Of a DNA stretch of 22,025 nt, positions 384-19,207 are shown one piece after another. Every line of letters begins with the position of its first letter. Position 1 is the first letter of the stretch. This DNA is from Candidatus Iainarchaeum sp. (GTDB lineage: Archaea > Iainarchaeota > Iainarchaeia > Iainarchaeales > JAFCCJ01): contig JBDRHK010000056.1 in assembly GCA_043816965.1 (NCBI GenBank), forward strand, positions 1-22,025, given 5' to 3'. The translations under genes were made by a program, and so were the position numbers. The notes under the pieces were generated by a model. The model did no database searches. It saw only the letters and a program-made list of their open reading frames with translations, and was not told the origin of the DNA.

Positions 384-861
384 AGGAAAAGGAACTTACC
401 TCCTTTTCCTGTCGATTATTTTTGTCTGGTTTTTACTAATCTTTTTGGCACCATTATTTGCGTCGTTGGGAGGTGTTTTTGATTTACCTTCTCAAATAAT
501 ATATTTAATTTTCAGACCGTTTTGCCATCAGATTCCTGAACGTTCCTTCTTCCTATTTGGTTATCCTTTAGGTGTTTGTGCAAGGTGTTTTGGGATATAT
601 TTTGGTTTGCTGATTTCTGCTTTAATATACCCGAAAATTAAAAAGGTCGATAACTTAAAATTTCCAAAAATTCATTGGATGCTATTGGCATTAGCTCCTC
701 TTGCAATTGATGGAATAACACAACTTGTTGGGCTGAGAGAAAGTACAAACCTATTGAGGTTAACAACGGGGTTCATCTTTGGCTATGTCTTGTTATTCTA
801 TATTGTTCCAGCATACAATAAAACAGTCAAAAGCATAAAAGCAAGATATTTTAGCAAATAA
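376..861 (+). CDS. DUF2085 family membrane protein
   Basis: Motifs CHQIPERSF, CARCFGIYFG and PLAIDGITQLVGLRESTNLLRLTTG. ATG at 376 follows GGGAG and overlaps the upstream gene. Confidence 0.85.
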   Translation: MFKGKGTYLLFLSIIFVWFLLIFLAPLFASLGGVFDLPSQIIYLIFRPFCHQIPERSFFLFGYPLGVCARCFGIYFGLLISALIYPKIKKVDNLKFPKIHWMLLALAPLAIDGITQLVGLRESTNLLRLTTGFIFGYVLLFYIVPAYNKTVKSIKARYFSK

Positions 862-927
862 GTATGTAAAAAGTTTATACAAATGTTCTGCATAATGAGG
901 AGAAAGCAACAAAATATCCCAATCAAC

Positions 928-1248
928 CTATCTGTGTTTTCTCTTTTTTTTATGTTTTTTGCTTCGAGATTTTACTACAATTTTGAAACTTCTTCCTTTT
1001 GTAATTACTTTGTACTTAGTTCCCGCAGGATATTTTCTCAGCTCGTCCAAAATATCATCGTCAAGATGGCTTGGATCCCAATAACTCGTGACAATATTCC
1101 CGGCCCACTTCGGGGTATTTGGTGAGGTGTACCATTTTGAAACTCGTACTTTTCTTTTTTTCTTCCCATGTTTAAATTTCTTCTTTTTAACTGTAAAAAA
1201 CCTACGTAATTTATTTACTATTTTTTTAAGAGATTTCATTAAATCCAT
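928..1248 (-). CDS. Small, very basic (Lys/Arg-rich) hypothetical protein
   Basis: 106-aa ORF starting 6 nt after the upstream stop, at the end of a minus-strand operon. No family recognised. Confidence 0.55.
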   Translation of the reverse strand: MDLMKSLKKIVNKLRRFFTVKKKKFKHGKKKRKVRVSKWYTSPNTPKWAGNIVTSYWDPSHLDDDILDELRKYPAGTKYKVITKGRSFKIVVKSRSKKHKKKRKHR

Positions 1249-1254
1249 TATAAA

Positions 1255-2379: not shown

Positions 2380-2383
2380 TAAA

Positions 2384-3697
2384 TCACTCCCGATCCTCAA
2401 TCTTCTGAATTTCTTCCAATTTTATTTCTTCAAGTTCCAATTCTTGTTCGCTCAGCGTTTCTTTAAAGGAGGAATAACTTATCCAATTAATCTCTCGCTC
2501 ACTATCATACAGAAAATAATCTCCGTCTGTGATTACCTCGTTTATTAATGAAAGATGCTCCGTATCATCATAAGAATCATTAATATGGATGCTTGTGTCA
2601 GGTATCATAGTAATCTCAGATGACCCATTCACATATCCCATAAATTCCCCGGTTTGGGGCTCTATAAGAGCTGCACCATTTAAATCAGAGTGTAAATTCT
2701 CAATTCCTTCGATTTTGTTTTTCGTAAAAGCAATTATGCAGTGTCCTGCGACATCATCTCTCTGGAAGTCGTACAGTGATCCGCAAACTATGTTTGGATA
2801 TTTATAGCCTTTAATTTTAACTGGACTAACTCTCGGAATCCACCAATCATGACTTTTTGTCAGGTAGTAGCCTGGGCCTATGCTATAAGGATCTTGATAT
2901 GCTTCTAAGATAATCTCTCGATCTCCTGGCGCAAAACATTCTTCCAGGAAATAATTGACCTCGGCTTTGTAAAAAAGTGAGAAATCTTCGCAGTCACCTC
3001 CTTTGTTTTTTATAATTTCTTCCAATGAAATCAATCTGTCACTGACAGTTGAGTCCACTAATGAATCCAAAACATCGTAATCTCCTCTGTATTTAAAATC
3101 AAAATCTTTCTCAGTTATATCTGCTTTGTATCTAAAATAAAAATCTTTTTCATTTATATGTGGAAGACATCCAGTAATCAATACACAGCTGTTTGCGCGA
3201 AAATCAAAGCAATTAGACCTGATCTTAAATCTCATCACGGTTTCTTTTTTTGGAAAAACTGAATTGTATCTAAACCAATCCATAGAATCCTGGATGTCTT
3301 GTTTAAAAGCTTCAATTTCTTCAAGAGTAGAGTCAATGTCATCCAACGTATTTTGCAGCTCCGATTCCAGAGATTCCTTTTCTGTACTCAGCGACTCTTT
3401 TTCCGATTCCAGAGATTCTGCTTCAGATTCCAGTTGACGTTTATCCTCAGATAACCTGCTGATTTGCTCCTCTAAATTAATAATCTTATTTACTTGGAGC
3501 CCGTATAATTTGTTCAAATCAGAAAATTTAGAGTTTAATTCAGTGTTCTCCAAATTCATTTGCTCAATTTGGGAATCAAGAGAAAGACTGATAAAAAGTA
3601 CAACTAGGAGTGCGAGGAAAAGCAAACAAACCACTATACTGAGGTGTTTTTTATTTATCCGACTTTTAACCACGGCAATAAAATCCATAAGTTTCAC
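2384..3697 (-). CDS. Membrane-anchored coiled-coil protein with transglutaminase-like cysteine protease domain
   Basis: N-terminal TM, heptad coiled coil (LESEAESLESEKESLSTEKESLESE), then GGDCEDFS (Cys), AGHC (His) and LIEPQTG (acidic) motifs. Confidence 0.75.
   Translation of the reverse strand: MKLMDFIAVVKSRINKKHLSIVVCLLFLALLVVLFISLSLDSQIEQMNLENTELNSKFSDLNKLYGLQVNKIINLEEQISRLSEDKRQLESEAESLESEKESLSTEKESLESELQNTLDDIDSTLEEIEAFKQDIQDSMDWFRYNSVFPKKETVMRFKIRSNCFDFRANSCVLITGCLPHINEKDFYFRYKADITEKDFDFKYRGDYDVLDSLVDSTVSDRLISLEEIIKNKGGDCEDFSLFYKAEVNYFLEECFAPGDREIILEAYQDPYSIGPGYYLTKSHDWWIPRVSPVKIKGYKYPNIVCGSLYDFQRDDVAGHCIIAFTKNKIEGIENLHSDLNGAALIEPQTGEFMGYVNGSSEITMIPDTSIHINDSYDDTEHLSLINEVITDGDYFLYDSEREINWISYSSFKETLSEQELELEEIKLEEIQKIEDRE
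3361..3433. repeat. Degenerate 21-bp (heptad-coding) tandem repeat
   Basis: CCGATTCCAGAGATTC at 3361 and 3403, with a partial copy at 3424. It encodes the coiled-coil heptads. Confidence 0.6.
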
Positions 3698-4854
3698 CTA
3701 AATGTCTGAGTTAAATAAAAATCATTTCCTTCTTGTGCAACACCTACTCCTGTTTCAGAATAGTCAGTGTTTATCATATTCCGGTAGTGCCCCGGGCTCG
3801 TTGTCCAACCACTAACGGCACAATTTGTGATGGCCTCTTCACTATAAACATTTCCGCAGCCGATTACGTCTCCCATTGGCACATTAGAGATATTTTCCGC
3901 AATGCCTATTGCATAAACTCCCCCACCTAAAGGAGTCCTCGTATTTATGCCGGCCTTCTCTGCTCTCTCAGTCGGACCGTCTCCGTCTGGATTAGTGTGG
4001 TCGAAAAAATTCCTTGCAGCTATGTCTTCGCTATGTCCCCGGGCAATTTTGGCTAAATCGTCGTTCCACTTTAATGGAGTTGTTCTTGCAGAATTTACCT
4101 TTGCAAACACCAGTTGCTCTATTTCACTTATATCTTTAGAATTATCGAATATTTCTTCCAAGCCCGAGAATACTTCCGTTGCATTGAAGTAATTTTCCTC
4201 GTCAGCAGATAGTTCAGCTACTGGTTTGTTCACTCCTGTTGGTTTATCCAATTTAATCGCAAAAGGATTGAATTTGTTGTAATCCAATTCTTCATAAACT
4301 CCTATTGCCACTTCCTTGTAATCTTCTTGGTTTTCATAAATATTGTAAGCGAACAAGAGGAGGAAAAGCAACAAGCCGTATTTTACAATGTTCATGCTTC
4401 CAAGATACCAATGGCGTGCCTGTCGGAAAGAAATCCTAAGAAAATAAAGAGAACCGAGTAACAATGCTATGAGGATTGTACTCCCGAGTTTAAGGAAAAG
4501 CAACGGGGAGGTGTTGAATTCTTCTACGTTTGAATAGAGTGTCAGGAAAATTAAAGCAATCACGAGGAAAATTACTGTGTTTTGTATGAATTTGCTCTTA
4601 CTGAAATAATGGTTCTGATGCTTTCTCCTAAACAGCCAGTATTTGAAATTTTCCAATTTCCGGACTATTTTGTCAGTAAAATTCGGTTTATTGTAGGAAT
4701 TGCCTTGTGGCGGATCCACGTATTCTTCCCCGCGCCTTTTCTGCCCAGATTTGCCATAGGCTTCATCTATTTTCTTCGCATCTTCTTCCGAAATAGGATG
4801 AGTTTCGCCATCATCAACAAAATCATGCAAACCGCCAGATCTTCTCCTATCCAT
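3694..4854 (-). CDS. Membrane protein with C-terminal CAP (SCP-like) domain
   Basis: Three TM segments, then VNSAR..PLKWNDDLAKIARGHSEDIAARNFFDH, AENI, WTTSPGHYRNM and GVGV...YLTQTF. Confidence 0.9.
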   Translation of the reverse strand: MDRRRSGGLHDFVDDGETHPISEEDAKKIDEAYGKSGQKRRGEEYVDPPQGNSYNKPNFTDKIVRKLENFKYWLFRRKHQNHYFSKSKFIQNTVIFLVIALIFLTLYSNVEEFNTSPLLFLKLGSTILIALLLGSLYFLRISFRQARHWYLGSMNIVKYGLLLFLLLFAYNIYENQEDYKEVAIGVYEELDYNKFNPFAIKLDKPTGVNKPVAELSADEENYFNATEVFSGLEEIFDNSKDISEIEQLVFAKVNSARTTPLKWNDDLAKIARGHSEDIAARNFFDHTNPDGDGPTERAEKAGINTRTPLGGGVYAIGIAENISNVPMGDVIGCGNVYSEEAITNCAVSGWTTSPGHYRNMINTDYSETGVGVAQEGNDFYLTQTFR

Positions 4855-4946
4855 TTAGAATTAGTTATATGAAAACTATTTTATATGTCTTTTTTGGGCT
4901 TAGAAAGCTTTTTAGGTGTTTTTTGAGGAGATTTCATGGGGGTTTA

Positions 4947-6857
4947 GTGAATAAAAGCAAGATTTTATTAGTGGTCATCTTCTTATTGCTTTTTAGTAGC
5001 TTAACCTATGCTCAAGATTTTAACTGTAGTGACTTTGTCAAGGACTTTAATTCAAGTTTAAAAGATCTTGAGGAGTACTATGGATGGTATTTTGATTCAA
5101 ATAGCGGCATATGTGATAATCAAGTATGTCAAAATATCATTCAAATTACTTTTAATGAGAAATTAACTGACAACCGAGTTCTTCGGTGCTTACAGGATTT
5201 TAACAAAGTAACGCTTGCCGATGATTATAATAAGGCAATATCTACTTACGATAAATTAATCGAAAAAGAAGAAAATGAAAATAACAAAGAGGAGCTTTTG
5301 AATCTTCTCGAAAATGAATATGGCATTTTGAGTTCTTGTGGCGGCTATTTAGCTAAACTAATAGATTCTTCTGGACTATGTGATAAGCAAGAACAAATTA
5401 AAGAAAAATTCAGAGATTTATTCAAAGAGGAATATGAAAAACGTGCTCAATCTATGAGTCAAAATACTTCTTGTCACGACCATGTTGAGTTTGTATCAAA
5501 CTTTTCATCTAAATTGGTGGGAATTGATACAAAAATGTTTTTTACTTTCAATAATGTCTTGGAAGATACTAGAAAAGATGTTTTCTTTGATGCAATTACT
5601 TGTGGTCAAGTTTGCACTAGCCAGATTCCTGAGTATCCTGCCCCAGAAGACTTAAATGGGGGACTAATTTGTTATGATTTAGCTAGAAAACTATTGCCTA
5701 CTGCCAATCTTGGGAAAAAAGGAGACATTAATCAGGACCCAGATAAAATTCTCAACGAGATAGATATTAATTCTGTGGCACTAGCTAAAGCAATCAGAGA
5801 CGAAAAATTAATATCTGATTATTCGTTTTTTGCAGGAAAAAGCGCTTATGCGCTTGGACTTAAAATTGTATGTGGCTTCCCAGATCCTCGTTGTGAAGAT
5901 ATGTTTGAAGATTATCTGGATGAAATTAGTTATGAAGATTATCATCTTGCTTCAGGCGCTTTTAGATCGTCGATAATATATTTTGCGGATTCTGAAAAGA
6001 CCAAAGACGAAAGTACTAGAAGTTTAATGAAGTTAAAAAGTACTATTAAAATTGGTGAGAGAAAAAAAGTTTATATGGACGTTTTCAATTCAATACAAGA
6101 AATATTCTTACAAATTTATGGGTTAATACCGATCTTTATCCTAATTAGTGGGTTTTTACTGATAGTTATGGCAATAATATATGTATTCCGTGATAAGATA
6201 TCTTTTCAGGAATATACCTTAAAAATTGAACCGCTGATTGAAAAATTACCTATTAAGGATTATTTACTATTGCTGGCTACTTTGTGGGTTGGTACCACAA
6301 TAGGTTTTACGTTGTCATTGAGTTTAGAAAATACTATCTTGATGGCATCTTCAACAAACGATGTTAATACTATTCTTTATCTTGCTAATAGTAATGATTT
6401 GACATCGATGTCATATTTTTCCTATTTTTTTAAGGATCTTTGGAATATTTTAGGGTTTTCATTTTTGTTTGGTGTTGTTTGGCTATTTTCCAAAGGGAAT
6501 AAATGGTTGGATCCAATTTATTCCATGGCTAATTTTTTTAGTTTTTTAGCGTTTGGCGTTTTTTTATTATACCTTGTTGGACTTATGAAATTAGAGGTTT
6601 TTTTCTCAGGAGCATTTCTACTGTTGATTACTGGATTAATTTTCAGTTGGTTGTTGATGGAAATTAAAGCACGAGCAAAAGCAGAAAAAATACTTAAAAG
6701 AAGGAAGTACATTCAAATAAATGGGGGAGAACCTATTCATGTTCCCACGTGCGGTTATTTGAATCGCACTGATGACAAAAACAAAAAAGAAGTGGATTTG
6801 TCAAAATCAGACCTTAAAAAATATCGAAAATGCACAAGGTGTATTAAAGATAATTAG
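4947..6857 (+). CDS. Large membrane protein: signal peptide, Cys-rich extracellular domain, multiple TMs, C-terminal His/Cys motif
   Basis: Long ORF with likely GTG start at 4947 (signal peptide ...LTYA). C-terminus has HVPTCGYL...KCTRC, a possible Zn site. Confidence 0.75.
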   Translation: MNKSKILLVVIFLLLFSSLTYAQDFNCSDFVKDFNSSLKDLEEYYGWYFDSNSGICDNQVCQNIIQITFNEKLTDNRVLRCLQDFNKVTLADDYNKAISTYDKLIEKEENENNKEELLNLLENEYGILSSCGGYLAKLIDSSGLCDKQEQIKEKFRDLFKEEYEKRAQSMSQNTSCHDHVEFVSNFSSKLVGIDTKMFFTFNNVLEDTRKDVFFDAITCGQVCTSQIPEYPAPEDLNGGLICYDLARKLLPTANLGKKGDINQDPDKILNEIDINSVALAKAIRDEKLISDYSFFAGKSAYALGLKIVCGFPDPRCEDMFEDYLDEISYEDYHLASGAFRSSIIYFADSEKTKDESTRSLMKLKSTIKIGERKKVYMDVFNSIQEIFLQIYGLIPIFILISGFLLIVMAIIYVFRDKISFQEYTLKIEPLIEKLPIKDYLLLLATLWVGTTIGFTLSLSLENTILMASSTNDVNTILYLANSNDLTSMSYFSYFFKDLWNILGFSFLFGVVWLFSKGNKWLDPIYSMANFFSFLAFGVFLLYLVGLMKLEVFFSGAFLLLITGLIFSWLLMEIKARAKAEKILKRRKYIQINGGEPIHVPTCGYLNRTDDKNKKEVDLSKSDLKKYRKCTRCIKDN

Positions 6858-6910
6858 ACTTAGAGGTAGTAAAATATAAAATATTGTTACATTAATATTA
6901 GTGATAATAT

Positions 6911-7468
6911 ATGGATAGTGTTTTATTAGAAATGAGCAGAATGTATGTTGAAGCCAATAAAGAACTAGAGAAATCTGACTATTTGCGTGCTGAAAAAATA
7001 ATTGATAGGGCGATTAAGAGGTTGCAGAATACTCTGCCACAGATGTATGATGAAAAATCCGTGAAATTCGCAATTGATGATGCTGCCCGACACTTGGATT
7101 GGCTCAGAGAAAAATTTAGAGAGACTAAAAAAGAAGAGATGGATGACTCAAAAAAAAAGTTCATATCATTCATAAATGAAAAGCAAATTTTACTCATAGC
7201 CTTGTTAATAAGGCATGCTTATGATTTAGATGAATTATCAAAACTTGATATGTTGATAAGGCCTATTTTTTATAGCGAATTAGTTCCAAGGCCAGATATG
7301 GTATTTATACATTCTGCAATGGATGACGATTATTACCTTAATGTATTCAAAAAAAGATTTGAAAGTTTTGTTGGTAAGTATCCGGATTTTAACCCGGAAA
7401 TAATAAAATATAAAGAACATATTGATAAGAAAGGACGTGAATTTGGTAAAAAAATAAAGTTGATATGA
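6911..7468 (+). CDS. Hypothetical helical protein
   Basis: 185-aa ORF with ATG after GTGA. Overlaps the next gene (ATGA). Confidence 0.7.
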   Translation: MDSVLLEMSRMYVEANKELEKSDYLRAEKIIDRAIKRLQNTLPQMYDEKSVKFAIDDAARHLDWLREKFRETKKEEMDDSKKKFISFINEKQILLIALLIRHAYDLDELSKLDMLIRPIFYSELVPRPDMVFIHSAMDDDYYLNVFKKRFESFVGKYPDFNPEIIKYKEHIDKKGREFGKKIKLI

Positions 7469-8085
7469 TGGCGAACGAAAAGATAAAAGATAAAATAGCC
7501 CGAAAAGAGATTATTGAGTATATACTTGCCCATACAAACGAAGAAGTAGTAAAAATAAGGAAAGATCTTGAAAAGCAGATCCCCCAAGTGAGAGAAGAAA
7601 TTGCAAAAGAAATAAATTTTAAGGTGCAACATGACATAGATAATCTTCAAAAAGAATTGTCACTAATAAAAAGAGATTTGGAAAAATCTAAAATTCAATT
7701 AGTAGAGGTTTTGGGAGTATTTACGGCAATTCTTGCATTTATTGTGACTTCTATCCAAATTGCTGTTAAATTTACAGCATTACTGGATGCATTGGTTTTG
7801 ATTTTCTCCATAGGAATAATTTTAATTTTGTTTATTTTTTTGCTTAAAAGAATAATTGAGACTCGATCAGAAAAACAAATACCCGGGCCAATCGAAGAGC
7901 GCAATATTGGTTCCTGGAAGAAATTTAGAAATTCATTAAATTTGTTTTTACCAATTCTTATTTCAATCTCATTAGCAATATTGGCTTATTCTGAAGTGAT
8001 CATCAAACAAAACTTATCTCTAGATTTTTGGACAATTTTATTTTTTGCTAGTTTGCTTGTTTTCATTGTTAATACTTTAGCTTGA
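7465..8085 (+). CDS. Coiled-coil plus ~4-TM hypothetical membrane protein
   Basis: Charged helical N-terminus followed by hydrophobic segments. Translationally coupled to the upstream gene. Confidence 0.7.
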   Translation: MMANEKIKDKIARKEIIEYILAHTNEEVVKIRKDLEKQIPQVREEIAKEINFKVQHDIDNLQKELSLIKRDLEKSKIQLVEVLGVFTAILAFIVTSIQIAVKFTALLDALVLIFSIGIILILFIFLLKRIIETRSEKQIPGPIEERNIGSWKKFRNSLNLFLPILISISLAILAYSEVIIKQNLSLDFWTILFFASLLVFIVNTLA

Positions 8086-8092
8086 TAAGGGA

Positions 8093-8365
8093 TTAAGGTG
8101 ATTGTCTGTGTTTTTGAATATTTTTTAAGATAATAATTCCTTTTGTCGTCCTTTCAAATATTTTTCCTTTTCTGGCCTCGGGAGTAAGGCATTTTACCAG
8201 GCCTTTTTCTATAAGTTCTGAAAGCGCTCTACTTACATGAGCTTTGTTAATATCTAAATCCTTCGCTAATTGAGTAGGAGTAGTAGGAAAATTCAGCTTT
8301 TCAAGAACCAATTTACGGTATCTGCTCCTGATTACAAAGCTAATAGTTTTCCAGTCTTTCGTCAT
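8093..8365 (-). CDS. Archaeal winged-helix transcriptional regulator (ArsR/MarR-like)
   Basis: SRYRKLVLEKL..PTTPTQLAKDLDINKAHVSRALSELIEKGLV...RKGKIF..TTKG. Confidence 0.85.
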   Translation of the reverse strand: MTKDWKTISFVIRSRYRKLVLEKLNFPTTPTQLAKDLDINKAHVSRALSELIEKGLVKCLTPEARKGKIFERTTKGIIILKNIQKHRQSP

Positions 8366-8378
8366 TATAATTAAGTTT

Positions 8379-8415
8379 GATTACTTTTATATAGATTTAG
8401 TTACCAAATAGTTAC
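8379..8415. promoter_or_regulatory. Divergent promoter with TATA-like box and TAGTTAC direct repeats
   Basis: TTTTATATA near 8385-8393. TAGTTAC at 8398-8404 and 8409-8415 (11-bp period), plus GATTAC at 8379. Confidence 0.45.
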
Positions 8416-8434
8416 GTTGATGGGGAGTGGAAAA

Positions 8435-9364
8435 ATGGGTAAATTTGTCTTCATACTAATAATATTTGCATTATTGCTTATCGGTTGTTCCTCACCACCT
8501 GAAACACAAGAAGAGTATACTCCTACTGGCGGCTATGTCTGTCCAGATGGTTCTCCTGTGACAAGTCTTTCTAATTGCGCCAAAGAGAACTCTGAACCGG
8601 AAGAAAGTGTATTTGAGCCTAACGGAGAACCGGTTGTTAGGCCTGAACAGGAAGTAATCGATTGTGGCCAAGATTTTAACTGTTTTAAGATTGCTATTCC
8701 CGATTGCGATCTTGCCAAGACTACTCAATCCGCCGGGCTTTTAGGGACTTATAATGCTGAAATTCAGGAAGACTGTTCAATTCTGATTAAAATGGAAACT
8801 ACGAGTGGCGTAACCACCAAAAGTTGTAAAATAAATGACCAAATAGTGTTGGATTATTTTGATAGCATTTCAGAGATGAACCAAATTTGCGATGGTTCGC
8901 TGCAGATTGTTAACTCTAAGCTTCTTGACCAAGATGACAGGAAAGTAATGGGGGGCAATTCTATTGTTTTAGGTTCTTCTGAACTTAGGTGGCAAATAGT
9001 TAAGATTGTAGAATATGGTGCCACGAAAAAAGACGAAGAGGCAGAGATGGATTCAATTTTTTGGGAAATGGAACCGAAAGAAGGATGGAAAAGAGAATAT
9101 TTCTGGATTGTTATAAGAAACGATTCTTTGAAGAAAGAATCTTTTAGCAGTAGTAATTTGCGTGATTTATATGCTTTTTCTAATTCTGACGAAATTGAGT
9201 TTGATATTCATATTATGCCTGGAGAGAAAAACATATCTTCAATTCCTGCAGGGGATGGTGCAATATATTATGGGGCGGCACTGTTGCCTGAAGACAGAAC
9301 TACCGCAGAAATAATTTATCGGCCTTCTTTTAATCGGGCAGATGCTATTTTCTTATTTGAATAG
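8435..9364 (+). CDS. Putative lipoprotein or surface protein
   Basis: Lipobox-like LLIGC after a hydrophobic signal, with Cys-rich segments (YVCPDG, IDCGQDFNCF). ATG at 8435 follows GGGGAG. Confidence 0.75.
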   Translation: MGKFVFILIIFALLLIGCSSPPETQEEYTPTGGYVCPDGSPVTSLSNCAKENSEPEESVFEPNGEPVVRPEQEVIDCGQDFNCFKIAIPDCDLAKTTQSAGLLGTYNAEIQEDCSILIKMETTSGVTTKSCKINDQIVLDYFDSISEMNQICDGSLQIVNSKLLDQDDRKVMGGNSIVLGSSELRWQIVKIVEYGATKKDEEAEMDSIFWEMEPKEGWKREYFWIVIRNDSLKKESFSSSNLRDLYAFSNSDEIEFDIHIMPGEKNISSIPAGDGAIYYGAALLPEDRTTAEIIYRPSFNRADAIFLFE

Positions 9365-9704
9365 TCTGAATTAACCTATAATTCATTTTGCCTATTCTTT
9401 CGATTTTTTCATTCAGCTCTTTGAAAGAATCCTTGCCCAGATAACCCAAGTCTCTTGCCAGAATAAGAAAGTTCTCAACTTCCTTTGCCGACCCGTTCGC
9501 CATGTACAGAAAACGGGCAAATTCTTTCTGGCTATTTTTTCCAGTGCCTTCGGCAATATTTGATGAAATGCTGTATGCCGCTCTCCGCATTTGCTGGGCC
9601 ATCCCGTATTGTTCAGTTTTTGGGAATTTTTTGGTTGCTTCATAAATGTCCAGAACCAATTCTTTGGATTCTTGCCAAAGTTTAAGTTTTTTGAAATCTT
9701 GCAT
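9345..9704 (-). CDS. Four-helix bundle protein (23S rRNA-IVS protein / Avd-like family)
   Basis: FKKLKLWQ...IYEATKKFPKTEQYGMAQQMRRAAYSISSNIAEG...FARFLYMANGSAKE. True start is ATG 9704 (119 aa), 1 nt after the terL stop, with GGTGGAG upstream. Confidence 0.9.
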   Translation of the reverse strand: MQDFKKLKLWQESKELVLDIYEATKKFPKTEQYGMAQQMRRAAYSISSNIAEGTGKNSQKEFARFLYMANGSAKEVENFLILARDLGYLGKDSFKELNEKIERIGKMNYRLIQTIQIRK

Positions 9705-9705
9705 C

Positions 9706-11283
9706 TTAACACTCCACCAATTCACCGTCAATCCACATTTTATCGCCGATTGCAAAAATAACTCCTCTTGTTTTTGTCCCCCAACAAGCATAGCAAAGCG
9801 CATCAACAAAATCATCACTACCGCCTTCAACATGGTGGAGCTTCATTTTTCCTGCAGCGTTTAACTGGAATTTGAACACCCGAAGCTCATACTGCAGTTT
9901 GTTATGCATTGGGATGGCCAGATTGCCGTCTTCCATTTGCTTTAATAGGTGATTGTAGGCCTCTGCTTTCGAGTCCAGCGTTGGCTTGAAGAATTCAACG
10001 TTCAAACCATCACGTTTCAGGTTTTCACAGGAGTTAATGCTTAATCCAGCATACTCTGAGATAACTTTCTTAAATTTCCAATCTGAATTAATCTGTTTTA
10101 TTCTTTCCTCCTGTATCTTGAAAGGAATATTGTGCATTTCGATTATTGATTCAACTTTTAACTCTTTTTCTTTATTCTTGGAAATAATTACAACAACAGA
10201 GCTGTCTTGTATTCGACCCCAATCAACACCGGCGTAATAGGACTTTCCATCTTCTTTTGGGCAGGTGTTCCGTAAGGTATACTCTCTTGTAACAGATTTT
10301 ATTGTCTCAAGTTTGAAGAAGCTATCAATTGCCTGGGAGAAGTTAGCTTCAATTTCTGTCTCATAGGCAAGACTGCTCATTGTTTTCTTCTGGTCTTCAA
10401 GCCAGTCCTTTGAGATGTACTTATTGATGCCGCTGGGGAGCTTTAATTTGACGTAAATAGGATTATTGTAGGCATCCCACAAAACACCATTGGTTCCCAA
10501 CGGGGATGACATCATTATCAGCGAACCTCGCTTTATTGCCAGCATTGGCTCAGTGGCCTGGATTGTGTCCTCCGTAATTCCATGAGCGACCTCATTCATG
10601 AAAATGTGGGTTACTTCAGTATATCCGCGAATGTATGTTGTGGAAGGTAATGAGTAAACCTCGCTCCCATTGGTGAATTGAATTACTTCCATATTGCTCT
10701 TCTGAACGGAATCGAATAATTCATTGGATTTGGCTATGAAATTCATAATTCTGTTGAATAATAAATCAGATTGTCTTTGTGCAGCAGAAACCAGAAGAAT
10801 TCTTTGGTTGGAATTTACTACTGAAAGCCATAGGGCAAAACAGGCTATGGTAAAGTCTTTTCCAGATTGTCTTCCGAGAACAAATACACATCGCTTATGA
10901 TTCAGCATTAATTTAACCATTTCAAGCTGGTAATCCTGTAATTCAATTCCCAAGACGTCTTTGCAGAATTTGTCTACACCGGTTGTTCCTTTGAACCAGT
11001 TCTTCAGCTGTTCGTCTGTAAAACCGAAATGTGCTTGCTGCGTGCGTACTTCTTCGCCGCGCAACACACGAATTCTTGTGGCTAAATCCTTCTTAGATGC
11101 CTTTAATTCCTCTATTTTTCTGTGTTTTTTCCCGCCTACTAATCGCTTGCTTAATTTATACTTGCTCTTAACCCATTTGATTACAGAATAACTGCAGCCG
11201 AAATACTCGGCAATTTCCTTTAGAGATTCGCCTTCCTTGAGCAGTTCAACAAACCTATCCTTATTAGCCTGAGTCCACTTCAT
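9706..11283 (-). CDS. terL: Terminase large subunit with N-terminal HTH extension
   Basis: Adenine motif LQDYQ, Walker A GRQSGKD, IRG...IFMNE (Walker B), motif III SSP, RNase H-fold nuclease AGVDWG and DDFVDALCYA. N-terminal GESLKEIAEYFGCSYSVIKW is HTH-like. RBS GGTGAGG. Confidence 0.92.
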   Translation of the reverse strand: MKWTQANKDRFVELLKEGESLKEIAEYFGCSYSVIKWVKSKYKLSKRLVGGKKHRKIEELKASKKDLATRIRVLRGEEVRTQQAHFGFTDEQLKNWFKGTTGVDKFCKDVLGIELQDYQLEMVKLMLNHKRCVFVLGRQSGKDFTIACFALWLSVVNSNQRILLVSAAQRQSDLLFNRIMNFIAKSNELFDSVQKSNMEVIQFTNGSEVYSLPSTTYIRGYTEVTHIFMNEVAHGITEDTIQATEPMLAIKRGSLIMMSSPLGTNGVLWDAYNNPIYVKLKLPSGINKYISKDWLEDQKKTMSSLAYETEIEANFSQAIDSFFKLETIKSVTREYTLRNTCPKEDGKSYYAGVDWGRIQDSSVVVIISKNKEKELKVESIIEMHNIPFKIQEERIKQINSDWKFKKVISEYAGLSINSCENLKRDGLNVEFFKPTLDSKAEAYNHLLKQMEDGNLAIPMHNKLQYELRVFKFQLNAAGKMKLHHVEGGSDDFVDALCYACWGTKTRGVIFAIGDKMWIDGELVEC

Positions 11284-11332
11284 AACCTCACCGCCTCACC
11301 CATAAAACTAACCGAACATAGCGCTGGAAACA

Positions 11333-11506
11333 CTATATCTCCTCTCCGTAAAGGTCCCGGAATTCCTCCGCAGCTTTCTTGAGTTGCCTGCTTAGACGTA
11401 GCCTTGTAGCATCCGAAATCCGATTGTTATCAACCGCGCAGAGCAGCGAGGTAATCTTAAGCCGGTGACTGAGCCGGAAGGAAATCGCCTGTTGTTCAGT
11501 AGGCAT
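11333..11506 (-). CDS. 57-aa small protein upstream of terL (not in the ORF track)
   Basis: MPTEQQAISFRLSHRLKITSLLCAVDNNRISDATRLRLSRQLKKAAEEFRDLYGEEI*, with GGAGG RBS upstream of the ATG. Confidence 0.6.
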   Translation of the reverse strand: MPTEQQAISFRLSHRLKITSLLCAVDNNRISDATRLRLSRQLKKAAEEFRDLYGEEI

Positions 11507-11526
11507 ATTCTTGCCTCCAGCTAATT

Positions 11527-11653
11527 ATGTCATGGTTTGTCACCGTGACATCAGTGTATTTATAGAGGTAGAGTAGAATGGGTGTCGTATCTCTATGTTT
11601 TATGGAAAATGTCACCCGTGACAAAGTGTGACATGGGATGACCGCAGATGACA
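11527..11653. repeat. Phased TGTCA/TGACA iteron array in imperfect inverted arms (candidate origin or packaging site)
   Basis: TGTCA at 11528 and 11538; TGAC(A/C) at 11619, 11629, 11639, 11649. Palindromes TGTCAC-C-GTGACA (11538-11550) and TGTCAC-CC-GTGACA (11610-11623). Inner IR ATAGAGGTA/TATCTCTAT. Confidence 0.8.
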
Positions 11654-12763
11654 TTATGCAATCACTCCCCGCTCTATTTTCTCATCTTCATACTTCTTCT
11701 TCCAGCGCTGAATCTGCCTTACGCTCTTGTTGAGTTTCTGCGCGTAGTACTTGTTGGTCTTATCAGAATGCTCCTTAAACAGATTAACAAATTCATTATA
11801 GCTTCCTGCATGCTCCTCATACAGATATTGTTTAAGCAGTGGTTCGGTCCACAACTCCGCCTGTTGTATTAGCACCTCTGAATCAGTTATTTCCAGTGTT
11901 TTTGACTTTGGAACTTCCTTTTCCATTACTTCATGTACTGCAAATCGAAGTATGTCAGAGCTTACTCTTGTTAGGAAGCCTATCTGCAAGTTTTCAAGGT
12001 GTTTGTCGCTCAGTTCTTTCGTTAAGTCTGAGTAGGATTCAATATACTGAGTGTAAGCTTGCTTTTTGATTAATACATGCCTAACAGGAAGCCCAAAGTA
12101 CCTGAGGTCAAACGATTGCTCCCCGCGCAAGGCGTCCATAAGCTCTCCATGTTCCGGGCAGCTGAAGTTAGGCGTGAACCTTGATTTTAAGCCTAATAAA
12201 CTCTGTGGATTCTCCTCAAACAGAGAGTTCACCTTTGGTTTTGGGTAGAACATTGCATAGGCGATGCATGAGAAGTTAACAGTGCCTTCAATACTTCCCC
12301 CGGAAACTGTAAGATTGGTCCATTCGTTCGGAGTTATGGACTCAGGTTCCTTCACAGCAAATCCCAGCTGTCTGTTTATTCTCTGATTCTCCAATACGCC
12401 TAATAATGCCTTGAGTCCGAATTCCCCAAGATTGTTGAACTCATCTACAACTAATATTTTTCCACCTATCTCTGCTGGCAATCCAGGCACATAGGTTTTA
12501 TCCTTGCTTATCGTTCCCAAAATAGCCGGTTTAGTGAGCTCATCCCGGACAACAACGTCATCACCTAGGAGCTCTTCGAGTTTGTGAGTGTAACTGGATT
12601 TTATCGTTCCGAAAGGCTTCACGATAAGCAAATGCATCTGCGGCCTCATTGAAAAATAACCGTTTCCTTGCTCTATCTCGAATGAGGTTAGCTTACGAAG
12701 TGCAGAAACGGTATTTAGTTGCTTGTTCAGCAGACCTACTGTGTTGTCTTCTATCGAATTCAT
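11654..12763 (-). CDS. Minimal MCM-like AAA+ ATPase/helicase with C-terminal HTH
   Basis: MHLLIVKPFGTIKS (MCM Walker A region), GGKILVVDEFNNL (Walker B), ALLGVLENQRI, SCIAYA and KSRF arginine finger. C-terminal KYYAQKLNKSVRQIQRW is HTH-like. Confidence 0.75.
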   Translation of the reverse strand: MNSIEDNTVGLLNKQLNTVSALRKLTSFEIEQGNGYFSMRPQMHLLIVKPFGTIKSSYTHKLEELLGDDVVVRDELTKPAILGTISKDKTYVPGLPAEIGGKILVVDEFNNLGEFGLKALLGVLENQRINRQLGFAVKEPESITPNEWTNLTVSGGSIEGTVNFSCIAYAMFYPKPKVNSLFEENPQSLLGLKSRFTPNFSCPEHGELMDALRGEQSFDLRYFGLPVRHVLIKKQAYTQYIESYSDLTKELSDKHLENLQIGFLTRVSSDILRFAVHEVMEKEVPKSKTLEITDSEVLIQQAELWTEPLLKQYLYEEHAGSYNEFVNLFKEHSDKTNKYYAQKLNKSVRQIQRWKKKYEDEKIERGVIA

Positions 12764-12792
12764 GTTGTTTCACCGAGTAATTTAATCTATTT

Positions 12793-12900
12793 TTATCTGA
12801 TAACGTCAACTGGGCCTCTCATCCTCGTAACTCTCGGTGCACTTTTCGGCACTCTGGTCACAGAGCCAGAAACCCAATCAATTGGTACTAATTTTCTCAT
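12793..12900 (-). CDS. 35-aa basic small protein (not in the ORF track)
   Basis: MRKLVPIDWVSGSVTRVPKSAPRVTRMRGPVDVIR*. The ATG directly follows the RHH stop (TAAATG). Confidence 0.45.
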   Translation of the reverse strand: MRKLVPIDWVSGSVTRVPKSAPRVTRMRGPVDVIR

Positions 12901-13026
12901 TTAATCCCCCAAACGATTCTTTAGAAGCACACGGACAAGGCCGCTAAAGGTATGTCCTCGTGAATCACAATACTCTTTCGCTTTTTGGAGCAAATCCTCG
13001 TTTATGGAAATTTGGACATTTTTCAT
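12901..13026 (-). CDS. Ribbon-helix-helix (CopG-like) regulator, 41 aa
   Basis: MKNVQISINEDLLQKAKEYCDSRGHTFSGLVRVLL fits the RHH pattern. ATG at 13026 lies ~30 bp downstream of a TATA box. Confidence 0.8.
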   Translation of the reverse strand: MKNVQISINEDLLQKAKEYCDSRGHTFSGLVRVLLKNRLGD

Positions 13027-13056
13027 CAAATCACTAATAAGAGTAGAAATAAGGAG

Positions 13057-13095
13057 TATATAAAAGTATACATTTAAATACACATTTGATGTATA
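13057..13095. promoter_or_regulatory. Back-to-back archaeal promoters with candidate operator IR
   Basis: TTTTATATA on the minus strand (13057-13065) and TTTAAATA on the plus strand (13073-13080), each ~30 bp from its ATG. IR TATACAT (13067-13073) / ATGTATA (13089-13095). Confidence 0.6.
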
Positions 13096-13109
13096 TATTA
13101 TTGATTGGT

Positions 13110-13757
13110 ATGAATGCTTTGAATAGTATTTGGGTAAAGAATATTGTATTCTGTCTATTGGATTCTCCTTTAATTCAGAGCCAGATAGCTAAGAAGACTG
13201 GCTATCCCCAACCACCTGTATCAAGGATACTGGAGCAGCTTAAGGATGAAGAAATTCTTGAGCATACTAAGAAGTCAATTGAGAGAAATGAAGGAAAGAA
13301 GAAACCCAGGTTTGCTTGGCAAATTAATTTCAACACCTTGCTAAAGTTTGCTCTTCTGCCTAAAGATATGTCATACGAAGCAAAAAAAGCAGCTTTGTTA
13401 GGAAATGTAAAAAGCTCAAAAATGACATTCGACAAGCCACATTATTACCAAGAACTCCCCGGGAGATTTGAAGAGTACTTAAAGCAAGTTAAAGAAAATG
13501 AAAAAAAGCCAGATAAAGATAAGATGATGAAATTAATTAGAAAGGCAACTTATACTGAAATGACACTTGAAACCATTATTGGTCAGTTTTTGGATTATTA
13601 TGCTCCAGTTATTTTATCAAAGACACTTGAAAGTTCAAAGATGATGGAATCGGATGAACTAAAACTTGAGTTAAAAGAAGCACTTGAGGCAATGAAACTA
13701 AGATTTGTCATGGGTTCTGTAGGAAGCTTAGGACTCAGTTATCCGGTGGAGATTTAA
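13110..13757 (+). CDS. N-terminal winged-HTH transcriptional regulator
   Basis: SPLIQSQIAKKTGYPQPPVSRILEQLKDEEILE wHTH. ATG at 13110 fits a leaderless transcript from the TATA at 13073. Confidence 0.75.
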   Translation: MNALNSIWVKNIVFCLLDSPLIQSQIAKKTGYPQPPVSRILEQLKDEEILEHTKKSIERNEGKKKPRFAWQINFNTLLKFALLPKDMSYEAKKAALLGNVKSSKMTFDKPHYYQELPGRFEEYLKQVKENEKKPDKDKMMKLIRKATYTEMTLETIIGQFLDYYAPVILSKTLESSKMMESDELKLELKEALEAMKLRFVMGSVGSLGLSYPVEI

Positions 13758-13805
13758 TGAGCGATAGCATTTATTTTACAAACAATAAACAAGGAGGTAA
13801 TAAAA

Positions 13806-13907
13806 ATGAATAAAGAAAATCAAAATTCGGGTTCAGATATCCCGGCTGAAAACCATCAAACCTCTAACCTAACCGGTAAGGAGTTCAAATCCCCCACGGT
13901 CCATTAA
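13806..13907 (+). CDS. 33-aa ORF running through the att site; candidate int(N) fragment of a split tyrosine integrase
   Basis: GGAGGT at 13793-13798, ATG at 13806: MNKENQNSGSDIPAENHQTSNLTGKEFKSPTVH*. FKSPTVH is encoded by the tRNA-derived sequence, and the stop follows immediately. Confidence 0.55.
   Translation: MNKENQNSGSDIPAENHQTSNLTGKEFKSPTVH
13883..13903 (+). other. Duplicated tRNA 3' end (attR-like), probably tRNA-Ala
   Basis: G-TTCAAAT (T-loop), CCCCC (T-stem 3' strand), ACGGTCC (acceptor 3' strand, U70) and A73. No 5' half of a tRNA lies upstream. Confidence 0.75.
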
Positions 13908-14188
13908 TCAGCCTTCTTTTTATAGCGCTTGTTGAGAAATAAATAGTCCTTTTCAAGGGCATCTGTGTAGGTAAGGTGCGGGCAATTTTTTTCAAGACAA
14001 ATGTACCGGGGGGCATTTGGGCAGTAATTTGGTTTTCGGGGAGTTCTATAATTTGCATTGTAATGCGGATTTGGGGCCTTTTTGGTTTTGAATTTTTTCA
14101 GGTCAACTACTTCATACCAATATTTATCTTTTTTATCACTCCATTTCCTCGCACAGTAAGCTTCAAGAATTATGTGTGTCCAACCCAC
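13904..14188 (-). CDS. Hypothetical basic protein with Cys cluster
   Basis: 94-aa ORF with GGAGG upstream of a GTG start and YCPNAPRYICLEKNCPH. Its stop abuts the att copy. Confidence 0.6.
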   Translation of the reverse strand: MGWTHIILEAYCARKWSDKKDKYWYEVVDLKKFKTKKAPNPHYNANYRTPRKPNYCPNAPRYICLEKNCPHLTYTDALEKDYLFLNKRYKKKAD

Positions 14189-14204
14189 TGCTTAATCCTC
14201 CAAT

Positions 14205-14519
14205 TTATTTCCAGACTTTTTCAAGGTTTTTGAGCCCTTCTTTGAATTCTTCCTCGCTTAGGGGATTTGCTATATTCCTTTCTTTTAGCTCTTCCATCAT
14301 TTCCCAAATGCCTATTTCTGCATTTTCTGCTGCCTTTCCTATGCTAAGTTTCCCTTCCTGATACTGCTTTATGGCCCTCTCTATCTTGTATTGTTTTGCC
14401 CCTATCCCAAATATCCTTTTCAGGGCGGTGGTTTTATCTGTTTTTTCATCTTTAGCAACCTGCTCTATCAGGGCAGTGTCTTTCTTTTCAAATCTGGCGG
14501 AAACCATTTCTGTTTTCAT
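14205..14519 (-). CDS. UPF0175 family antitoxin-like protein
   Basis: N-terminal RHH-like VSARF, then AIKQYQEGKLSIGKAAENAEIGIWEMMEELKERNI. GGAGG RBS. Confidence 0.85.
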   Translation of the reverse strand: MKTEMVSARFEKKDTALIEQVAKDEKTDKTTALKRIFGIGAKQYKIERAIKQYQEGKLSIGKAAENAEIGIWEMMEELKERNIANPLSEEEFKEGLKNLEKVWK

Positions 14520-15052
14520 TTTTTGCCTCCTTTTATTTTTTCAATTCTATTGAACGCATTGAAAATGAAATCTATTTTATACCTTCCCTCATTCTGGGCA
14601 ACTTTTAATGCCTCCAGTGCCTCTCCTTTTGAGATTTTTTTCCTCTCAGCAAAACCCACAATAATATCCGGAATTGTTGCCCAGTTTATTCCAAACAATT
14701 TTGCCGCGTTTATTGCCTGCCTGTCATCCGCCAGCAAAAGTTTTGCTTTTGTTTGAATGTAAAGATGAATTGCCTGCATTTCACCCTCATCCAGGTTAAG
14801 TTCCCTGAGCCATTTTATTGCTTTTTTGTCTTTCATAGGCAATGTTTTCCCGACAACTATCCTGTTTTCATTGATCGCCTCCTCGATTTTTAATGCATCC
14901 ACTTTGCGTAATTTTTTCCCTTCAATTACTGTTTCTTCAAAAACCTTCTCCGGAATTTCAACTTTAAACTCCTTGCACATTACATTCAGCAATCCTGCCT
15001 TGGCCCCAATAATCAGGGAACTGCTGTCAGACACCACAAGCAATTTTGTCAT
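14516..15052 (-). CDS. PIN-domain protein (DUF3368 / VapC-like toxin)
   Basis: VVSDSSSLI, IPEKVFEE, LDEGEMQAI and LLADDRQA acidic PIN motifs. Confidence 0.85.
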   Translation of the reverse strand: MTKLLVVSDSSSLIIGAKAGLLNVMCKEFKVEIPEKVFEETVIEGKKLRKVDALKIEEAINENRIVVGKTLPMKDKKAIKWLRELNLDEGEMQAIHLYIQTKAKLLLADDRQAINAAKLFGINWATIPDIIVGFAERKKISKGEALEALKVAQNEGRYKIDFIFNAFNRIEKIKGGKK

Positions 15053-15102
15053 ACAATATATTATAACGTAAACAGAATATAAACCTGCTGTTTCCGGGCC
15101 TT

Positions 15103-15135
15103 ATCAATCCAGCATCAATCCAGCATCAATCCAGC
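15103..15135. repeat. Perfect 11-bp tandem repeat x3 (ATCAATCCAGC)
   Basis: Directly visible at 15103, 15114 and 15125, between divergent genes. Confidence 0.9.
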
Positions 15136-15181
15136 CCCTTCGCAAAAGCTATAAATACCAGTTTGGACTTATATTTGGTCA

Positions 15182-15880
15182 ATGATTAGAAAATTATTTT
15201 TAATTGGTTTATTGTTGGCAGCAGTCCTGATTGGCGGATGTACTGAACCACAAATACCTGCTTGTGAAAACTATTGTGAATCTTTAACGCCTGATATCGA
15301 TTGCATTGGCAAATGGATGGCAACAGGAGATTATCCTAATTGTGGTTGTGAATTTGAATGTGATTCTGAATCTTCGGAAGAGTGTAAAAAGGAAGGGGAA
15401 TCAATCCCGGTTATTGCCAACCCCCCTAAATGCTGTGCGGGCTTGGAGCTCATTCCGCCCAAAGAGGCGCAAATCCTTGGCATAAGCGGCTACTGCACGG
15501 CAAAATGCGGAAACGGAATTTGCGATGAAATAGAGAGCGAAAATAACTGCCAGCAGGACTGTGCCGGAGGCGGGCCTGTTCCATACGGGGAATGCGGAGA
15601 CGGCATATGTGAACAGGGGGAAAACACCCCATCATATCCATATTATTGCCCTGAAGATTGCGGAAACGGAATCAGCACATCGCCCTGCGACACCAAGGAT
15701 TACTGTGAAATTGATAGTGATTGCGAATATGTGTGGTTTACCGGCGGTTGTTTTGATCCGCACAAGGTTGGGGAGTGCATGCAGGAATTAATTGATTCTG
15801 GAATGCGCCCTGGGGAAGCAGAGCCAAGGGACGGAGTTACTTGCACTTGTGAAAACAATAAATGCATAACTCATGGCTGA
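15182..15880 (+). CDS. Cys-rich secreted lipoprotein
   Basis: Lipobox-like LIGGC and repeats CGNGICDEIESENNCQQDC / CGDGICEQGE...CPEDC. Confidence 0.8.
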   Translation: MIRKLFLIGLLLAAVLIGGCTEPQIPACENYCESLTPDIDCIGKWMATGDYPNCGCEFECDSESSEECKKEGESIPVIANPPKCCAGLELIPPKEAQILGISGYCTAKCGNGICDEIESENNCQQDCAGGGPVPYGECGDGICEQGENTPSYPYYCPEDCGNGISTSPCDTKDYCEIDSDCEYVWFTGGCFDPHKVGECMQELIDSGMRPGEAEPRDGVTCTCENNKCITHG

Positions 15881-18250: not shown

Positions 18251-19207
18251 TCATTTTACTTTAAGGAATTCCTTAACCTGCCTGAAGTATTCCTGCAGGG
18301 AAAATTCCACGAAAGCCTTGTACTTGCCTGTTTCCGCACCCCTGATTAAGCCTTTGAAGTATTCTTCCTTTTTTGCTGAAATGTTCAGCAGCGGGAAATT
18401 GCTGTCGATAAGTGTTTTGTTCAGTATGAGCCTGCAAATCCTCTTGTTGCCATCAAGGAAAGGATGAATCATGTAGATTTTTGTATGTGCGACAAATGCC
18501 TTTTCCAGAGGGTTCAGGTCAGTAAAATGGTACCATTCAACAAATTCCCTGAAAAGCGCGGGAATTTTTTCCGGTGACGGTGGCTTGAAGGCAATTTCAA
18601 CTCCTGCCGGATTTTTGTGGTCCTGCTTGTATATGTAAACCCGCCGGTTCCTGAGTTTTCCCGGTGTTTTGGTTTCAAATTGCGACATTGCAACTGCATG
18701 CAGTTTCAGAAGGTATTTCTCGTCAAGGCTCTTCTTCTTCCTTATGAAATCAACTGCCTGCAGCATATTTTTGCTTATTTTCTCCCTGACATTCAATCCG
18801 CCATGCTTCTCCAAAGCGTTTTTGACATCCTGTAAATCAACATCAACATCTTCAGTGGTCAAGGTTGTCAGTGTGAATAATATGGTACTGTCAACATCGT
18901 ATTTCCTCCTTTTGACAGATGACATCGCGTTATATTTCTTGTAAAATCTGTCCCTGAACAGGGCTGCTTTTATCAAATCGTCTTTAGATATGATCTCGTT
19001 GGAATATTCTTTCCCAAATAGATTTTTCACCAACTCCGATTTGAACTCATTTTCAAGCCTCGCCAGTTTCCTTTTCGAGGGCTTTTTTATCCCGACATAT
19101 TTGCTGAAGCTTTTAGGCTTATCTAATACACGATAACTTAGATGAAGATAATAATATTTCTCGCCTTTTACTTTTTTCTTTCTTAGAGACACACAATAGT
19201 TAGGCAT
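18251..19207 (-). CDS. Fic/Doc family protein with N-terminal basic domain
   Basis: HPFLDGNKRICR Fic motif, PGKLR and FTLTTLTTED (position of the inhibitory helix). Confidence 0.9.
   Translation of the reverse strand: MPNYCVSLRKKKVKGEKYYYLHLSYRVLDKPKSFSKYVGIKKPSKRKLARLENEFKSELVKNLFGKEYSNEIISKDDLIKAALFRDRFYKKYNAMSSVKRRKYDVDSTILFTLTTLTTEDVDVDLQDVKNALEKHGGLNVREKISKNMLQAVDFIRKKKSLDEKYLLKLHAVAMSQFETKTPGKLRNRRVYIYKQDHKNPAGVEIAFKPPSPEKIPALFREFVEWYHFTDLNPLEKAFVAHTKIYMIHPFLDGNKRICRLILNKTLIDSNFPLLNISAKKEEYFKGLIRGAETGKYKAFVEFSLQEYFRQVKEFLKVK

Follow-up and report, generated by a model that had tools for sequence, protein, structure and literature searches.

A recurring capsid-less island with an HTH-TerL gene in Iainarchaeota, a candidate satellite of tailed archaeal viruses

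Genes and sites of the island core

The contig JBDRHK010000056.1 of Candidatus Iainarchaeum sp. carries the core of an island that encodes a large terminase subunit (TerL) with an N-terminal helix-turn-helix (HTH) domain. We analyzed the entire contig of 22,025 bp, here called the window, so that no sequence lies beyond its left end. The host genome comprises 1.34 Mb in 109 contigs and has a GC content of 42.5%. All credible genes at positions 9345–13083 point leftwards (minus strand), in the order ribbon-helix-helix (RHH) protein, 369-aa mini-MCM, repeat-rich spacer, 525-aa HTH-TerL, and a four-helix protein of the 23S-rRNA-IVP/Avd type (in the following IVP). The window was compared with locus L002, loci from genomes of the phylum (L019–L029), metagenome contigs (L004–L007), IMG/VR (L030), and further virus loci (L031 and L033). 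A preliminary description, made from the letters of this DNA, had proposed a single leftward gene run, and the named genes were all found on the minus strand at the places it gave. Two of its members were not supported. The 35-codon open reading frame (ORF) at 12793–12900 and the 57-codon ORF upstream of terL at 11333–11506, both on the minus strand, have neither a family match nor a homologue, the latter in the loci compared. In L002, a counterpart of the 35-codon ORF is missing, and an RHH-like ORF directly abuts the MCM gene.

The product of terL (9706–11283, minus strand) starts with a three-helix HTH, which is followed by a long conserved helix, the ASCE ATPase, and a nuclease of the RNase-H-like type. 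The protein matched the PHROG family phrog_2 with an E-value of 1.8e-31 and stayed below the Pfam cut-offs for Terminase_6N (21.5 vs. 22 bits) and Terminase_6C (20.2 vs. 22.6 bits). When a profile of 35 TerL sequences was compared with the PDB, it matched T4 gp17 (3.1e-17, positions 98–512) and the nuclease domains of the G20c/P74-26 thermophages (~1e-20), and it also aligned to the ATPase domain of P74-26. The AlphaFold2 (AF2) model of TerL reached a pLDDT of 87.6, and the best 46 ranked Foldseek matches were all TerLs, with T4 gp17 at the top (E = 2.8e-23). In the model, the N-terminal HTH consists of helices 5–16, 21–28, and 32–41, followed by a disordered linker and the long, strongly conserved helix. 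By sequence, this HTH is nearest, weakly, to HTH domains of the resolvase/transposase type. Gly137-Arg138-x-x-Gly141-Lys142, Glu231, Glu410, and Asp491 are invariant in the 35 homologues, and Asn230, Asp354, and Asp490 are nearly so. It is therefore secure that the window protein is a TerL with an N-terminal ASCE ATPase and a C-terminal RNase-H-like nuclease. It shares the two-domain ATPase–nuclease fold and the catalytic residues with the TerLs of T4 (gp17), HK97, Sf6, D6E, and P74-26/G20c, and differs from tailed-virus TerLs in the additional HTH and conserved helix and in the lack of an adjoining portal or capsid gene. The residue ahead of the Walker-B Glu231 is Asn in most members, in islands and related viruses alike, whereas the usual TerL has an acidic residue (Asp) there. 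A total of 75 homologues was retrieved, mostly of 515–580 aa and spanning 96–98% of the query; one of them, 72% identical, is named 'Candidatus Diapherotrites archaeon' by NCBI.

Downstream of terL lies the gene for the four-helix protein (119 aa, 9345–9704, minus strand). The four-helix bundle predicted earlier at this place was borne out by PF05635, which scored well above its gathering cut-off (E = 2.5e-40; 137.4 vs. 33.8 bits), and by phrog_3206, 'Avd' (3.7e-14). As the homologues measure 115–116 aa, translation probably starts at 9704, one base past the terL stop, and IVP synthesis is probably coupled to that of TerL. The IVP gene follows terL in all five informative close loci, with a frameshift in L022 and a three-gene insert intervening in L020. 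Virus loci and other island types lack it, and the present genome has a single copy.

The mini-MCM gene (11654–12763, minus strand) encodes an AAA+ ATPase. The protein had no Pfam match and did not reach the gathering score of PF00493; a relative with 34% identity came to 22.8 bits on this family, with a cut-off of 23.3. The AF2 model (pLDDT 82.9, pTM 0.86) nevertheless has an MCM-type fold, as the preliminary description had suspected. Only MCM subunits were among the Foldseek matches listed (E ~1e-8, probability 1.00), and the model covers about a third to half of full-length MCM chains (TMt 0.26–0.32). Twelve homologues share an invariant P-loop Lys55, Asp107-Glu108, and Ser194-Arg195, which we take to be Walker A, Walker B, and the arginine finger. 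Compared with cellular and viral MCM proteins, the AAA+ core is closest to MCM2-7 and archaeal MCM and is followed by a helical, HTH-like tail that resembles a DNA-binding domain, whereas the protein is about half the size and lacks the N-terminal OB/zinc domain. Its relatives, 11 in a word-indexed search and 243 representative clusters in a full HMMER scan, form a family of short proteins: the best 150 of the 243 clusters are all 88–470 aa long, compared with ~650 aa or more for a full-length MCM. The name mini-MCM is a description of its look; the protein is not a canonical member of the MCM family. Judged by its model, it is predicted to act in the replication of the island, either as helicase or as initiator.

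Of the 27 RTGACA half-sites of the window, seven are clustered within 126 bp (11528–11653, no strand assigned), past the mini-MCM stop and ahead of the 57-codon ORF. They include two palindromes flanking an AT-rich TATAAATA-like box. L002 encodes a mini-MCM with 70% identity, directly followed by the same cluster (seven sites in 150 bp) with the core palindrome conserved; the two sites form a non-coding alignment with a mean column identity of 79%. The TerL of L002 is of a different, HTH-less type with 22% identity to that of the window. Eight loci without this mini-MCM, six of them with the window-type TerL family and other replication genes and two with the L002-type TerL, had at most two RTGACA sites per 150 bp. 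The cluster belongs to the replication module because it travels with the mini-MCM and not with TerL, and it was rejected as a pac site for the same reason. It probably serves the mini-MCM module as origin or operator. The iteron array of the preliminary description thus holds as a cluster, while it offers no evidence of a recognition site for TerL. Among the relatives of the TerL island, the slot of the mini-MCM is filled by different replication genes, for example by a D5_N/DUF5906 primase–helicase in L021. By homology only, the island appears to have its own replication module. An IMG/VR scan with the mini-MCM alignment found no relative. Distant mini-MCM relatives (32–35% identity) were seen in L004–L007, in one-directional, virus-like gene runs that carry a PrimPol-type primase and an N6/N4 DNA methylase and in which no structural gene was recognized; L004 and L005 also encode an AdoMet decarboxylase and a PCNA homologue.

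The leftward run begins with the RHH gene (12901–13083, minus strand; RHH_5, E = 5e-4), whose true start is probably an internal Met, giving ~41 aa. Its product matches an RHH_1-positive 62-aa protein of island L028 (E = 7e-7). Divergent from the RHH–MCM–TerL run, and present as described before, is a gene for a 223-aa winged-helix (wHTH) regulator (13086–13757, plus strand) with weak matches to HTH_5 (3.1e-4) and DUF7343 (2.4e-4). A 246-aa protein with 39% identity lies at the same end of L021, an island bounded by attachment (att) repeats, and in L002 this position is occupied by a 219-aa protein that matches the same Pfam families. The regulator is probably the switch or repressor of the island.

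Pfam and PHROG scans of the 32 window ORFs gave no match to portal, capsid, protease, or tail families, in agreement with the earlier impression that such genes are missing. The scan is able to find them: the same PHROG search detected portals in the virus loci L030, L031, and L033, a protease and a capsid gene in L030, and a protease in L031. For L025, a provirus of the same phylum, it returned matches to a major head protein (5.8e-62) as well as to a portal (1e-51), and for L026 to a portal (1e-56). All ORFs of at least 250 aa to the left of 13907 encode TerL, the mini-MCM, or proteins with hydrophobic segments, a signal sequence, or a lipobox. We considered the 662-, 437-, 386-, and 381-aa proteins as hidden portal or capsid proteins and rejected them on account of their hydrophobic segments and signal sequences, as judged by a crude hydropathy scan. 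Capsid, portal, and head-completion genes, as known from capsid-forming phage-inducible chromosomal islands (cf-PICI), were found neither in the window nor in any close island. Portal and capsid genes in the part to the left, which the preliminary description had named as an outcome that would refute it, thus did not turn up.

Recurrence, boundaries, and extent of the islands

A TerL match was obtained in 12 of the 215 genomes of the phylum. In nine of them, TerL lies in small portal-less islands (the window, L019–L022, L024, and L027–L029), in two it belongs to full morphogenetic or head modules (L025 and L026), and in one (L023) the locus is cut by the contig end. The TerL-positive genomes with the capsid-less layout are spread over several families. 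Four of the related islands (L020, L021, L022, and L024) possess a tyrosine integrase and flanking direct repeats, three of them at tRNA genes. L021 is bounded by a tRNA-Ser and, 12.66 kb away, by a repeat of the last 31 nt of this tRNA; in L024, a tRNA-Met and a 48-nt repeat are separated by 6.94 kb; and in L020, direct repeats of 26 nt lie at a distance of 11.4 kb. L022 begins at a tRNA-Arg and has repeated ends of 16–18 nt. Islands with both ends single measure 6.9–12.7 kb, compared with 26–45 kb for the related viral contigs. An empty-site search for L021 in its family matched both flanks, which were not adjacent to each other. We conclude that the window element is the core of an integrative island, one of a family that recurs in this DPANN phylum.

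Six island terL genes form 15 pairs, in 14 of which synonymous sites are saturated (pS 0.76–0.88), with pN values of 0.15–0.25. The sole unsaturated pair gave a dN/dS of 0.087. For terL, pN/pS ratios were 0.12–0.33. Judged from these comparisons and from the invariant or nearly invariant catalytic residues, island terL is under strong purifying selection, a point on which the preliminary description had suggested a dN/dS test.

In a quick tree, the island TerLs and three TerLs of unknown context formed a clade of nine rows (SH-aLRT 100), and the TerL of virus L030 fell in a neighboring clade. In L030, genes for a portal (4.8e-41), protease, and major head protein come after the gene for an HTH-TerL with 45% identity. 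The fusion of HTH and TerL noted before is real, but it is not specific to satellites, since the same fusion occurs in this complete virus. The sequence relationships indicate that the fusion is inherited from complete tailed viruses and is not a satellite invention. The viral HTH-TerL of L030 (2854–5364) is 836 aa long and contains an insert of ~300 aa that matches PHROGs of unrelated proteins (helicase, polymerase). This is the pattern that an intein would give, and we consider the insert a candidate intein.

To the left, the core meets a lipoprotein gene (8417–9364, plus strand; 315 aa), part of the cargo, whose product has a signal peptide and a lipobox Cys. The gene is convergent and overlaps the four-helix gene by 20 nt, as the preliminary description had it. 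A second wHTH regulator of 90 aa (8093–8365, minus strand; HVO_A0261_N, 2.5e-8) has homologues inside L021 (40% identical) and L002/L029 (42% identical). Beyond it lie three cargo genes (4869–8085, plus strand) with a GC content of 30–33%, compared with the genome-wide 42.5%. Their products are a secreted multi-pass membrane protein of 662 aa, a helical protein of 185 aa, and another membrane protein, of 206 aa. The first has a 606-aa homologue in L021 (E = 1e-23), and homologues of the other two lie beside the TerL–IVP pair of L019 (E = 1e-18 and 5e-31). L021 is syntenic with the window: its integrase is followed by the homologue of the 662-aa membrane protein, AbiTii, the homologue of the 90-aa wHTH regulator, two lipoproteins where the window has one, DUF4145, IVP, TerL, the D5-like primase–helicase, the homologue of the 223-aa wHTH regulator, and the distal repeat. 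Because homologues of the genes at 4869–8365 reside in or beside related islands, and L021 shares the gene order, the window island reaches left to at least 4869. It is therefore larger than the ~4.5 kb initially assumed. Satellite-like cargo in the relatives includes AbiTii, DUF4238, and an Mrr-helicase of the type IV restriction-like kind. Over most of window 1–8500, its left third, GC content is 30–36%, and a genome of the same genus has almost no DNA match to window 1–9400; the whole left part of the window may be accessory DNA.

At the right end, the preliminary description had placed a tRNA att. ARAGORN and Rfam found no tRNA in the window (the genome as a whole has 28 Rfam tRNA matches, several of them 95–164 nt long, which we read as intron-bearing archaeal tRNAs). 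What exists is a 21-nt stretch at ~13884–13905 (no strand assigned), inside a 33-codon ORF (13806–13907), that resembles the T-loop, the T-stem, and the 3' end of the acceptor. No second copy of at least 20 nt is present in the 109-contig assembly, and a tRNA-end-like stretch of 47 nt has only partial matches of 12–17 nt elsewhere in the genome. By position, just beyond the wHTH gene, the stretch corresponds to the distal 31-nt tRNA-Ser repeat of L021, and it is possibly the remnant of a distal att site. Elsewhere in the genome, contig C81 has an integrase next to a tRNA-Glu at the contig end (15008–16376), and contig C74 (16542–19900) encodes a 497-aa integrase, 33% identical to that of L002, together with wHTH and lipoprotein genes.

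The DNA further to the right was compared with G152, a genome of the same genus. The syntenic block begins only at window position 16123 and runs to the contig end; the comparison does not yield a right island border. Just outside the tRNA-end-like stretch, at 14205–15052, lie genes for a UPF0175 protein and a PIN-like 178-aa protein (PADLOC candidate PDC-S70), which probably form a toxin–antitoxin pair. A Fic/DOC-family gene (18251–19207; PADLOC SoFic, 2.6e-26) lies between guaA and the PhoU region. The block of G152, ~80% identical and collinear in all other respects, lacks this gene, which therefore looks like a separate small insertion.

Other arrangements were encountered among the relatives. 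In L022, five copies of the last 16–18 nt of tRNA-Arg are distributed over 9 kb (3120–12200), with a HicAB pair and DUF4238 between copies, which suggests that several elements were inserted in tandem at one tRNA. L002 represents a second island type (7282–15585) with a tyrosine integrase, wHTH, RHH-like ORF, mini-MCM and repeat site, a 161-aa ORF, and the HTH-less TerL of 415 aa. Its TerL gene is followed by genes for small proteins, one of which matches Phage_cement (4.8e-8) and head-scaffold PHROGs; L002 contains no portal or capsid gene. L027 and L028 have the L002-type TerL, with a pPIWI-associated nuclease or Shedu nearby.

A possible satellite and the alternatives

Given this architecture, the island could be a satellite, or 'hitcher', of a tailed archaeal virus that is packaged in the capsids of its helper, a reading to which we assign about an even chance. 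Infection by the helper would open the island switch, and the mini-MCM would replicate the island, excised or in situ, from the repeat site. The island TerL would then recognize island DNA through its fused HTH domain, dock on the portal of procapsids made by the helper, and fill them with island DNA. The motor of this virus lineage appears to have DNA recognition fused to it; a satellite with a packaging specificity of its own would then need the whole TerL in place of a small subunit. The broader proposal is a little less probable than not: that the islands represent the first satellites known for tailed archaeal viruses, with a new strategy, in which a full TerL with a built-in recognition domain and a four-helix partner take over helper procapsids, and in which replication modules (mini-MCM with origin, D5-like primase–helicase, wHTH protein) are swapped between lineages.

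Encapsidation of the island is what we infer from its architecture, and several observations weigh against a satellite. The search for a helper identified none: two portal families were found in none of five island-bearing genomes; of these, phrog_18178 was detected in both known carriers, and phrog_9232 had no genome-search control. The L030-type portal occurred in one of the 215 genomes, as a weak match. TerLs of the island clade were not found in IMG/VR, where the best match, 45% identical, belongs to a complete virus; a single-TerL query found no relative there, and only the TerL alignment reached viral contigs. Of the 75 TerL homologues, a minority have a known genomic context. Neither an integrase match nor a second att belongs to the window copy in this assembly, and the copy may for this reason be incomplete. 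The integrases of the genome (C81 beside tRNA-Glu, C74, and C31) were rejected as partners of the att-like end, as they sit at other tRNAs or on other contigs and the 3' end of the tRNA-Glu differs. Finally, we know of no satellite family, from the literature or otherwise, that has a TerL and lacks capsid genes, so that the mechanism would be without precedent.

That no helper virus was found in the island-bearing genomes would fit a co-option of TerL, together with IVP, to a capsid-independent role. The island would then be an integrative plasmid-like or defense island, itself unpackaged, and TerL would either process its replication products or interfere with an infecting virus by competing for or cutting its concatemers or by blocking its portal. 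Such a role also accords with the retention of the TerL–IVP pair in all five informative close loci and the absence of IVP from the virus loci, and with the defense-type cargo of the relatives (AbiTii, the type IV restriction-like enzyme, and DUF4238, as well as Shedu SduA_C and the pPIWI-associated nuclease in the sister type). Yet none of the PADLOC models matches TerL, IVP, or the mini-MCM, and the ATPase and the nuclease residues are both invariant, as in packaging enzymes. Moreover, co-option partly overlaps with the satellite reading, since interference and self-transfer go together in known satellites. We consider co-option for a capsid-free role unlikely, although it is the best of the alternatives.

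The island could also have arisen by decay of a full tailed provirus, whose head and tail genes were lost while terL survived by chance. The missing integrase and second att of the window copy, the frameshifted IVP gene of L022, and the fact that the nearest TerL relatives of known full context are complete viruses would fit. In contrast, the capsid-less layout recurs in nine of the 12 TerL-positive genomes, across several families; four islands retain an integrase and direct repeats; and the bounded islands of 6.9–12.7 kb are free of fragments of head or tail genes. This recurrence and the purifying selection on terL (dN/dS 0.087, pN/pS 0.12–0.33) therefore reject a one-off deletion remnant with relaxed selection, an outcome that the preliminary description had named as fatal to its proposal, and we regard decay of a provirus in general as highly improbable. 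Least probable of all is an autonomous virus with unrecognizable virion proteins, for example with membrane proteins and lipoproteins that build an unconventional particle: homologues of the 662-aa protein and of the 185/206-aa pair do recur beside TerL in L021 and L019, each bounded island has secreted or lipoprotein genes, and many ORFs are without a family match, but to our knowledge TerL motors occur only alongside portal-bearing HK97-type capsids, no soluble protein of at least 250 aa without assignment is left in the window island or L021, the 6.9-kb L024 has room for at most one such protein, and the cargo genes vary between islands.

Relation to known satellites and significance

As a candidate satellite, the island can be compared with several known systems. 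Phage-inducible chromosomal islands (PICI), including the Staphylococcus aureus pathogenicity islands (SaPI), and PICMI elements are small islands integrated at tRNA genes or other specific sites; they encode an integrase, a switch for regulation, and a replication module of their own. The integrase and att sites are found here only in the relatives. They also resemble the present islands in their accessory or defense cargo, the absence of capsid and tail genes, and one gene that redirects packaging, a function here predicted for TerL. PICI and PICMI depend on the TerL of the helper and contribute a redirecting factor or a small terminase subunit, whereas the archaeal islands have a whole TerL with a fused HTH. 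Their hosts are bacteria, in contrast to the present host, an archaeon. Like the cf-PICI, the islands would supply their own packaging enzymes and not just a specificity factor. However, cf-PICI also have genes for the major capsid protein, the portal, and the connectors, so that tails are all they steal; none of these genes is present here. By analogy, the layout resembles a PICI/PICMI-type satellite in an archaeon, with a full TerL in place of the small-subunit or redirecting gene.

Comparable elements in archaea are the satellites pSSVx and pSSVi and, in halo- and nanohaloarchaea, the SRCE elements (Zhou et al., bioRxiv 10.1101/2025.02.15.638363), which combine plasmid-type replication with an incomplete morphogenetic module, some of them in DPANN hosts. 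In that preprint, pSSVx and the SRCEs are described with a helper-type morphogenesis ATPase and no capsid gene. Yet these elements are satellites of spindle-shaped viruses, mostly plasmids with an unrelated AAA+ ATPase, whereas a tailed-virus TerL on a chromosomally integrated island is found here. According to the same preprint, satellites of spindle-shaped viruses were the only ones described in Archaea as of 2025. A 2026 preprint adds one putative Asgard satellite, without a terminase, and marine VEIMEs are reported to have terminases of the small-subunit type only. In our literature search, supplementary files aside, archaeal islands with TerL and without a capsid were nowhere described, in agreement with the earlier statement that no described equivalent in DPANN-like archaea was known.

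The mini-MCM and its adjacent conserved site offer a compact candidate pair of helicase and origin for biochemistry. If the satellite reading is true, packaging can be hijacked by carrying the motor itself. The islands would then constitute a family of tailed-virus satellites in DPANN archaea, adding an extra layer of parasitism to cells that are themselves symbionts, and would provide a vehicle for surface-protein and defense genes that are exchanged among these tiny genomes.

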